Shown here piece by piece: positions 15,058 to 15,187 of a stretch of 64,000 bases of DNA. Position 1 is the first letter of the stretch. Every line of letters starts with the position of its first letter. The notes under the pieces are model-generated. The model made no database searches. It worked only from the letters and a program-made list of their open reading frames with translations, and was not told the origin of the DNA. This DNA is from a virus, in IMG/VR virus record IMGVR_UViG_3300031134_000007, positions 1-64,000 of that record, one strand, 5' to 3'. The position numbers and the translations under genes were made by a program.

Positions 15058-15187
15058 CACTGCTACAAGGAACATGCCTAGCGAGCACAAAGATGGTGAG
15101 TCAATGCACCTGTCCCTGTCGTGCTCCAGGGACCACGTTCCATGTTTCGTCGCTTTTAATGTCGGCGACTCATCAGGCAATACGACA
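15058..15187 (-). ncRNA. Hammerhead ribozyme, type I, with enlarged stem III loop
   Basis: Minus strand: stem I UAUUGC/GCAGUG, core CUGAUGA, stem II GUCGC/GCGAC, GAAA, stem III ACAUGGAACGUG/CAUGUUCCUUGU, cleavage triplet GUA. Loop II CGACA is complementary to UGUCG just 5' of stem I. Confidence 0.85.

Follow-up and report, generated by a model that had tools for sequence, protein, structure and literature searches.

The locus described here raises the question whether a stretch of phage DNA on the minus strand encodes a self-cleaving hammerhead ribozyme and which function such a ribozyme could have among the RNAs that surround it. The analysed DNA of 64,000 nucleotides, in the following called the window, belongs to a 104-kb IMG/VR viral record with an estimated completeness of 37%, which features genes of a phiKZ-type RNA polymerase beta subunit, a tail sheath, a terminase and a DNA polymerase. 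The original prediction, made from the letters of the window, had placed an intact type I hammerhead with a pseudoknotted cargo domain in stem III at this site and had assigned to it the processing of a polycistronic tRNA/ncRNA transcript. According to the present analysis, the element can be read, with a probability of roughly 0.8, as a functional type I pseudoknot-stabilised hammerhead which is present once per genome in phiKZ-like jumbo phages of Erwinia, Salmonella and relatives and which processes a non-coding RNA transcript.

Anatomy and annotation of the hammerhead element

The ribozyme is located in a gene-free stretch of about 540 nt, and all genes around it lie on the minus strand, which is the strand of the ribozyme. 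The same stretch is kept in the closest GenBank relatives at this locus, the Erwinia phages pEa_SNUABM_48 and pEa_SNUABM_37 (294 kb; pEa48 and pEa37 in the following) and the Salmonella phage SA002 (288 kb). A PHROGs search of the neighbouring open reading frames returned families of unknown function only. Near-identical DNA was encountered in public sequencing runs of phyllosphere, plant, food, soil and wastewater metagenomes, and no RNA run was listed among those with the locus.

The letters and coordinates that had been given for the motif are all correct on the minus strand (Table 1). The elements follow each other on this strand in the order stem I 5' strand, core, stem II hairpin, GAA, stem III hairpin with its insert, H17 and stem I 3' strand, and this order is the same in all lineages. 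The topology is that of type I, with an open stem I, which holds the 5' and the 3' end of the ribozyme, and closed stems II and III. In the window, the two bases at the fourth position of stem III form a U-U mismatch. The core, the three stems and the topology, taken together with the comparison of relatives, bear out the intact type I hammerhead, and on the evidence of its sequence the identity of the element as a ribozyme appears highly probable. Likewise, the position of the previously proposed cleavage site agrees with hammerhead numbering. The element is probably active, with cleavage being predicted at this bond.

Table 1. Position of the hammerhead element, its parts and the adjacent RNA elements in the window.
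Feature	Position	Strand	Remarks
Whole hammerhead element	15187-15058	minus	predicted cut between 15064 and 15063
Tertiary pseudoknot, 5' strand UGUCG	15187-15183	minus	abuts stem I on its 5' side; partner is CGACA of loop II
Stem I, 5' strand UAUUGC	15182-15177	minus	6 of 6 pairs with 15063-15058, two of them G-U
Core strand CUGAUGA (C3-U4-G5-A6-U7-G8-A9)	15176-15170	minus	
Stem II GUCGC/GCGAC with loop II	15169-15149	minus	
Loop II CGACAUUAAAA, 11 nt	15164-15154	minus	first five bases (15164-15160) form the pseudoknot
Core GAA (G12-A13-A14)	15148-15146	minus	
Stem III, 5' strand ACAUGGAACGUG (A15.1, then CAUGGAACGUG)	15145-15134	minus	11 of 12 pairs with 15076-15065
Stem III insert, 57 nt	15133-15077	minus	lineage-specific extension
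Insert hairpin 1 GUCCCUG/CAGGGAC	15133-15127 with 15118-15112	minus	
Insert hairpin 2 GGUG/CACC	15110-15107 with 15098-15095	minus	
Proposed insert pseudoknot GAGCAC/GUGCUC	15126-15121 with 15088-15083	minus	
Stem III, 3' strand CAUGUUCCUUGU (CAUGUUCCUUG, then U16.1)	15076-15065	minus	11 of 12 pairs with 15145-15134
Predicted scissile bond between A17 and G1.1	15064 (A17) and 15063 (G1.1)	minus	placed by hammerhead numbering
Stem I, 3' strand GCAGUG	15063-15058	minus	doubles as first bases of the downstream RNA
tRNA-shaped element A	about 15430-15325	minus	acceptor GCCCAGA/UCUGGGC, loop AACUUAC
tRNA-shaped element B (optional)	about 15310-15195	minus	T-arm CGGGG-UUAGAUU-CCCUG, ACCA-like tail
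Downstream RNA element C	15063-14843	minus	predicted to be released by the cut with a 5'-OH; about 150-220 nt
Terminator-like hairpin in element C	14941-14920		followed by a U-rich tail
Second terminator-like hairpin, end of element C	14875-14843		conserved in relatives

The rarity of the motif was assessed with a descriptor comprising the core, a stem II of at least 4 bp, GAAA, A15.1-U16.1, an H17 other than G, a stem III with at least 7 of 8 pairs and a stem I with at least 5 of 6 pairs. Since this descriptor matched one single site on both strands of the 64-kb window, namely the ribozyme, and none in 300 dinucleotide-preserving shuffles, the motif is real and goes beyond chance. Stems I, II and III are all present in the minimum free energy fold as well as in the centroid fold of positions 15050-15195 (ViennaRNA), and the overall folding energy of the region is ordinary (z = -1.08).

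In a search with Rfam at the gathering level, tRNA-Tyr was the only match in the whole window and no hammerhead was reported. A search of the region with the hammerhead models, which had been suggested as a check and which was also run on a version truncated to force the type I arrangement, recovered Hammerhead_3 (RF00008) below the threshold only, and the relatives behaved alike. The score of RF00008 amounts to 26.7 bits in the window (E = 0.0011, cut-off 48.5) and to 21-30 bits in each of the homologues, arising locally from the core and stem II, and no member reaches the gathering score. In the corresponding alignments, the upstream stem III is placed differently in the individual genomes, a topology which is not conserved. 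For Hammerhead_1 (RF00163), zero matches were obtained on the genome of the window at E <= 10. The hammerhead models of Rfam are built for a stem III that is short and closed in type I and open in type III, and they miss the present element because its stem III is enlarged by an insert of 26-86 nt, the core being intact. The failed score is attributed here to the reach of the models, and no defining feature of the ribozyme is regarded as missing on its account. Hammerheads with enlarged peripheral helices escape standard Rfam annotation; the ribozyme class is well known and its jumbo-phage subfamily is unannotated.

An identity as an HDV-like or theta ribozyme was considered separately and ruled out, as no HDV-type Rfam match was found in the region even at E <= 10 and the structure is that of a hammerhead, with the cut predicted at its 3' end.

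Conservation of the element among related jumbo phages

Homologues were searched by pattern scans, BLAST and a covariance model (R1), and the same element was found in the same place in at least 10 related jumbo phages or contigs. It is carried by the phages SA002, pEa48, pEa37, Erwinia phage AH06 and 16 further Agricanvirus records including Ea35-70 and RAY, and by the IMG/VR or metagenome contigs L010/L139, L125/L127, L204/L212 and L091 (five IMG/VR lineages). L125 is a complete 273-kb genome and L212 a 287-kb contig, L010 equals the 280-kb metagenome contig L139 over the compared ribozyme stretch, and the copy in L091 is truncated. In the five genomes that were searched as a whole, exactly one copy per genome was present, at the same place. 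The pattern scans varied in their yield. The 16-mer CTGAYGAGTCGCCGAC gave one true match out of 18, the rest being chance, and CGCTAGGCATGTTC retrieved 99 stretches, all of them outside the hammerhead family except L010 and the truncated L091. The combination GGTGTCTCGA...GGTAATTTG led to six contigs, none of them related, scans with GGTAATTTGNCCGGTT and GATAGTTTAATGAGAAC detected no hammerheads beyond the known set, and a single metagenome scan gained L139 only.

All eleven conserved core nucleotides are invariant in the nine distinct sequences, and the same applies to A15.1-U16.1 (A-U in 9 of 9), G10.1-C11.1 (G-C in 9 of 9) and C15.2-G16.2. G12-A13-A14 shows no change in any homologue. The only core changes across the homologues are found at position 7, where U is replaced by C in pEa48, and at H17, which is A in the window, C in L125 and the Agricanvirus phages, U in L204/L212 and never G. 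These are the two positions, N7 and H17, at which hammerheads tolerate variation of the core.

Covariation was counted in the nine distinct sequences on the basis of an alignment (A7) guided by the covariance model R1, which was used instead of MAFFT on the full elements, where the 3' halves of distant lineages were misaligned. In the Ea35-70 group, R1 misplaced the 3' end (24 bits); these rows were excluded from the pair counts and read by eye. Over stems I-III and the pseudoknot between loop II and the 5' flank, 93.3% of the cells pair versus 24-50% with slid partners, the percentages being somewhat inflated by the fitting of the stem I-III alignment to the model, and 14 of the 29 pairs feature changes on both sides. 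None of 500 shuffles reached the observed percentage of paired cells, the number of pairs changed on both sides or the covariation score; among the five measures in all, only the observed count of further pair types was reached, by 4 of the 500 shuffles, and these figures are not probabilities, as the relatedness of the sequences overstates their independence.

The individual helices contribute to this signal to different degrees. In stem II, 100% of the cells pair and two pairs are changed on both sides (CG/GC/UA and GC/CG); the Ea35-70 group features a G-A mismatch and a bulge in this stem. Stem III pairs in 93% of the cells with both-side changes in 8 of its 12 pairs, and in L204 it is wholly rewritten, ACAGAGAGCGAC pairing with GUCGCUCUCUGU at 12 of 12 positions. 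Stem I pairs in 85% of the cells, with both-side changes in two pairs (e.g., G-C to C-G) and a mismatch at the fifth pair from the core in most sequences; it is weak in SA002, L010 and L204, where 3-4 Watson-Crick pairs are accompanied by mismatches. Covariation across related jumbo phages, which had been named as a check of the prediction, was thus found, and the core is kept in all relatives.

The cleanest covariation signal of all helices is given by the pseudoknot between loop II and the 5' flank of stem I, a helix that is absent from the covariance model used in the alignment. It comprises 5-7 bp and pairs in 96% of the cells of the nine sequences. Depending on the lineage, its fifth pair is U-A, A-U or C-G and its first pair G-C or U-A, the strands being UGUCG/CGACA in the window and L010, AGUCG/CGACU in SA002 and pEa48, ACGUCG/CGACGU in L125 and L204, and ACGUCU/AGACGU in AH06. 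The tertiary contact between loop II and the side of stem I, initially proposed from the window, is real and covaries among the lineages. Base-paired contacts between stem I and stem II occur in about 40% of natural hammerheads, where they are required for fast cleavage at low Mg2+ and constrain the helix lengths (Perreault et al., 2011; PMC3088659). Loop II features 11 nt in every lineage, a constancy that is expected if the tertiary contact constrains the lengths of the helices (PMC3088659).

Stem III is enlarged by 26-86 nt in every lineage, and the extension is usually branched, often with two hairpins. An insert of 57 nt occurs only in the window, SA002 and pEa48. The 42-nt insert of L010 contains hairpins and sequence unrelated to those of the window, the 26-nt insert of L125/L127 forms a GNRA-capped hairpin within a longer stem, and those of the Agricanvirus phages and L204/L212 extend to 82-86 nt. 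No common insert sequence or fold was found across the lineages. Concerning the two hairpins and the pseudoknot that the original prediction had drawn into the insert, all complementarities are present, and hairpin 1 covaries, with two compensatory pairs (U-A to C-G and C-G to U-A) among the three sequences of the window subgroup; it is the only part of the insert that does so, within this subgroup. Hairpin 2 and the pseudoknot are without comparative support, the closing pair of hairpin 2 being lost in two of the three subgroup sequences and the pseudoknot showing no variation where it is present and being unformable in L010. The further claim of a pseudoknotted cargo domain that serves as a conserved allosteric or protein-binding module found no support, as the insert is replaced by unrelated stretches of 26-86 nt elsewhere. 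This lack of a shared sequence or fold argues against a common ligand- or protein-binding module and is what one expects of a tolerated lineage-specific extension on a helix that would point away from the active site and be free to drift. A lineage-specific role of the insert is conceivable.

In the Agricanvirus inserts (L198:1560-1600 and L199:840-880), a conserved near-palindrome was observed in a hairpin loop, reading GAUUGCAAUC in Ea35-70 and GAUUGCAAAUC in AH06. It could be a site of loop-loop (kissing) dimerisation.

Flanking RNAs and the presumed role in transcript processing

Upstream of the ribozyme lie two tRNA-shaped elements, neither of which was called as a tRNA by ARAGORN or by the tRNA model of Rfam. 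Element A consists of a perfect 7-bp acceptor stem, a D-arm-like hairpin and a long anticodon-side arm, the inner stem of which shows full covariation between the window and SA002. It is also found at L198:1313-1440, in L199 and in L204, and the conservation of its loop AACUUAC extends to the Agricanvirus lineage. The loop sequence (AACUUAA in L204) is located 72-241 nt upstream of the hammerhead in the examined lineages, and an exact match to it was not found in L212. Element B is a weak match (15 bits) to the tRNA-like part of a Deinococcus Y RNA. In the window, pEa48 and L010, it is situated between element A and the ribozyme, with a canonical T-arm GGGTTCGAGTCCC in L010, and it is missing from SA002 and L125, so the ribozyme is independent of element B.

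Some further observations concern these upstream RNAs. In pEa_SNUABM_48, the same RNA island contains a sub-threshold match to YrlA (RF02553) at L003:163-266 on the plus strand (41.9 bits versus a cut-off of 69, E = 2e-6); Y RNA-like RNAs mimic tRNAs as well. In SA002, the Rfam tRNA model matches L002:450-520 on the plus strand with 34 bits versus a cut-off of 29, at a place where no tRNA is annotated and which partially overlaps a hypothetical coding sequence of 39 codons. In a contig from a wastewater run, 13 bases at window positions 15186-15200 are swapped for 49 other letters. The spacer between element B and the ribozyme is longer in this variant, as it is in pEa48, and represents a hot spot of length changes.

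Downstream of the predicted cut, element C features 61 predicted pairs, 18 of them with compensatory changes (RNAalifold, six homologues), including a long covarying hairpin and an invariant GGUAAUUUGUCCGGUUAC hairpin. Rfam assigned no family to element C and gave only spurious matches to mir-4872, which falls on the terminator hairpin, and DapZ. In the Agricanvirus and L204 lineages, another structured non-coding stretch is found 3' of the ribozyme.

As the ribozyme lies on the strand of the neighbouring genes and within a non-coding island, a role in transcript processing is the natural reading, and the processing of a polycistronic tRNA/ncRNA transcript, as initially put forward, may be retained in this sense, its position being the argument. 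To judge by this position, it is moderately probable that the element acts as a protein-independent processing site which fixes the 5' end of the downstream RNA. Upon transcription of the minus-strand non-coding RNA, stems I, II and III would fold as a three-way junction around the core, and loop II (CGACA...) would pair with the five bases located 5' of stem I. By this pseudoknot, the two stems I and II would be kept in parallel alignment, to which natural hammerheads owe their fast cleavage at cellular Mg2+. Subsequently, the 2'-OH of A17 (15064) would attack the adjacent phosphate. Type I hammerheads cut at their own 3' end, so that the ribozyme would stay on the upstream RNAs and the downstream RNA would be freed with a 5'-OH. 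The upstream product would comprise the tRNA-shaped RNAs together with the ribozyme and carry a 2',3'-cyclic phosphate end, and the downstream product would be the structured RNA that extends from G15063 to the intrinsic terminators. In this way, the ribozyme would separate the tRNA-like RNAs from the downstream RNA without the help of an enzyme, with whatever effect this might have on RNA stability.

Other explanations of the locus have to be weighed against this reading. A resemblance by chance, or a conservation owed to a protein-coding gene, can practically be dismissed. The region is overlapped on the ribozyme strand by an ATG-started open reading frame of 77 codons (15004-15237), but the longest open frame across the site varies between 23 and 101 codons and shifts its frame between homologues, so that no open reading frame is conserved, the length differences between homologues are not multiples of three, the substitutions in the helices are compensatory, and the absence of the motif from all 300 shuffles speaks against chance. 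It also appears very improbable that the true ribozyme is a type III hammerhead at 15210-15139, in which the upstream strand UCCCUGUA|U... would serve as stem III and the cut would be located near 15203 at the 3' end of element B. RF00008 indeed aligns to the window in a type III topology with its 26.7 bits, and the upstream GCGAU could pair with AUUGC, a pairing which is kept in pEa48 as GCAGU. However, this score lies well under the gathering cut-off, the arrangement requires an extra U between A17 and stem I as well as one mismatch in stem III, and the Rfam model chooses a different pseudo-site in other genomes, a GUC within the pseudoknot strand. Moreover, the upstream segment is wholly missing in SA002 and L125, where the ribozyme is still present, and it is the type I stems that covary in all lineages.

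A third possibility accepts the hammerhead fold and concerns its activity: cleavage could be slow or gated, either by a protein or RNA on the stem III extension or by competition of the GUCG sequences, and the element would then represent a regulated switch or mainly a structural module. Several members with a weak stem I and a stem III mismatch, and the enlarged, usually branched stem III of every lineage, would fit such a function, although the insert is devoid of cross-lineage sequence or structure and so offers no common ligand site. Similarly, the GUCG in the 5' flank of the window subgroup is the same as the GUCG of stem II and could pair with the 3' strand of stem II, but this duplication is missing in L125 and the Agricanvirus phages, whose stem II contains GUUGC or GCC. 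The catalytic nucleotides are strictly kept while the helices beside them covary freely, a pattern which argues for selection on catalysis. A gated or mainly structural element is for these reasons considered quite unlikely, and the functional, self-cleaving type I hammerhead is preferred.

Implications and comparison with known systems

Phage hammerheads are abundant, and to our knowledge almost none of them has a demonstrated job. The jumbo-phage subfamily constitutes a clean test case in this regard, with a single copy, a fixed position between RNAs and tractable cultured phages (RAY, Ea35-70 and SA002). The predicted cut would give a defined 5' end to a conserved jumbo-phage RNA, which would make element C easier to study. 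The finding is of value because it proposes a biological role for a phage hammerhead that can be tested, and because it opens a way to the surrounding RNAs. RAY, which carries the hammerhead element, is an experimentally characterised nucleus-forming phage (bioRxiv 10.1101/2023.02.24.529968). In nucleus-forming phages, transcription is separated from the cytoplasm (PMC12908238). In such a compartment, closed to most host proteins, an enzyme-free processing of RNA could be useful. A 2025 review of nucleus-forming phages mentions no such ribozyme (PMC12908238), and the collection of papers that was searched contained none that pairs hammerheads with jumbo phages in the present sense.

Full-length genes of RtcB are present in pEa48 (MW879340.1, 91427-92575) and Ea35-70 (KF806589.1, 44597-45745; E ~1e-128), and none was found in SA002, in L125, whose genome is complete, or in the incomplete record to which the window belongs. 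RtcB ligates RNA ends of the kind that hammerheads make, a 2',3'-cyclic phosphate and a 5'-OH; phages more ordinarily encode it to mend tRNAs cut by nucleases. As the gene is missing from SA002 and the complete L125 genome, a link to the ribozyme is optional at best. It is a speculative and rather doubtful extension of the present reading that nucleus-forming jumbo phages might use hammerheads in place of host RNases to mature their non-coding RNAs, with the resulting ends serving as substrates of the RtcB that several of them encode and the variable stem III domain tuning the cleavage or recruiting lineage-specific partners.

With regard to the large insert, discontinuous hammerheads, known from the 3' UTR of mammalian Clec2 mRNAs, tolerate a large insertion in a peripheral helix as well. 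In contrast to the present element, this insertion amounts to hundreds of nucleotides in a different helix, in a eukaryotic mRNA and without such a pseudoknot or a phage context. The stem III of the present element, being both long and closed, likewise differs from the Hammerhead_1 and Hammerhead_3 models of Rfam, whereas its core and stem II match RF00008 locally.

Hammerheads that are stabilised by a pseudoknot have been known since 2011 from bacteria, prophages and phages, including phage transcripts, and for the latter the processing of long transcripts into shorter RNAs was proposed (Perreault et al., 2011; PMC3088659). The present element shares with these hammerheads (Rfam clan CL00010) the core, the three-way junction, the H17 rule and G10.1-C11.1, and also the contact of 5-7 bp between loop II and the side of stem I and the occurrence in long phage transcripts (PMC3088659). 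It deviates from them by the 26-86 nt added to stem III, often as two hairpins, and by a pseudoknot in which loop II pairs with a single-stranded tail 5' of an open stem I (PMC3088659). Furthermore, it is a single-copy element of a non-coding island, with tRNA-shaped RNAs on one side and a structured RNA on the other, whereas the hammerheads of Perreault et al. (2011; PMC3088659) occur in pairs and are flanked by protein genes near integrases.

The closest functional precedent, by analogy, is that of the theta ribozymes, minimal HDV-like ribozymes beside phage tRNA genes, which were proposed to trim tRNA 3' trailers (Kienbeck et al., 2024; PMC10879173). In both cases, a small self-cleaving ribozyme class acts, or is predicted to act, in cis beside phage tRNA-type genes, and theta ribozymes were proposed to replace host RNases (PMC10879173). 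The two systems differ in their hosts, which are gut Caudoviricetes with recoding for theta ribozymes and phiKZ-like jumbo phages for the present element, as well as in their structure, an HDV-like double pseudoknot as opposed to a hammerhead fold. Additionally, the cut of theta ribozymes falls at the 5' end of the ribozyme and directly behind a tRNA, whereas the cut predicted here is located at the 3' end of the ribozyme and more than 100 nt past the tRNA-like RNA, so that the hammerhead would define the 5' end of the downstream RNA.
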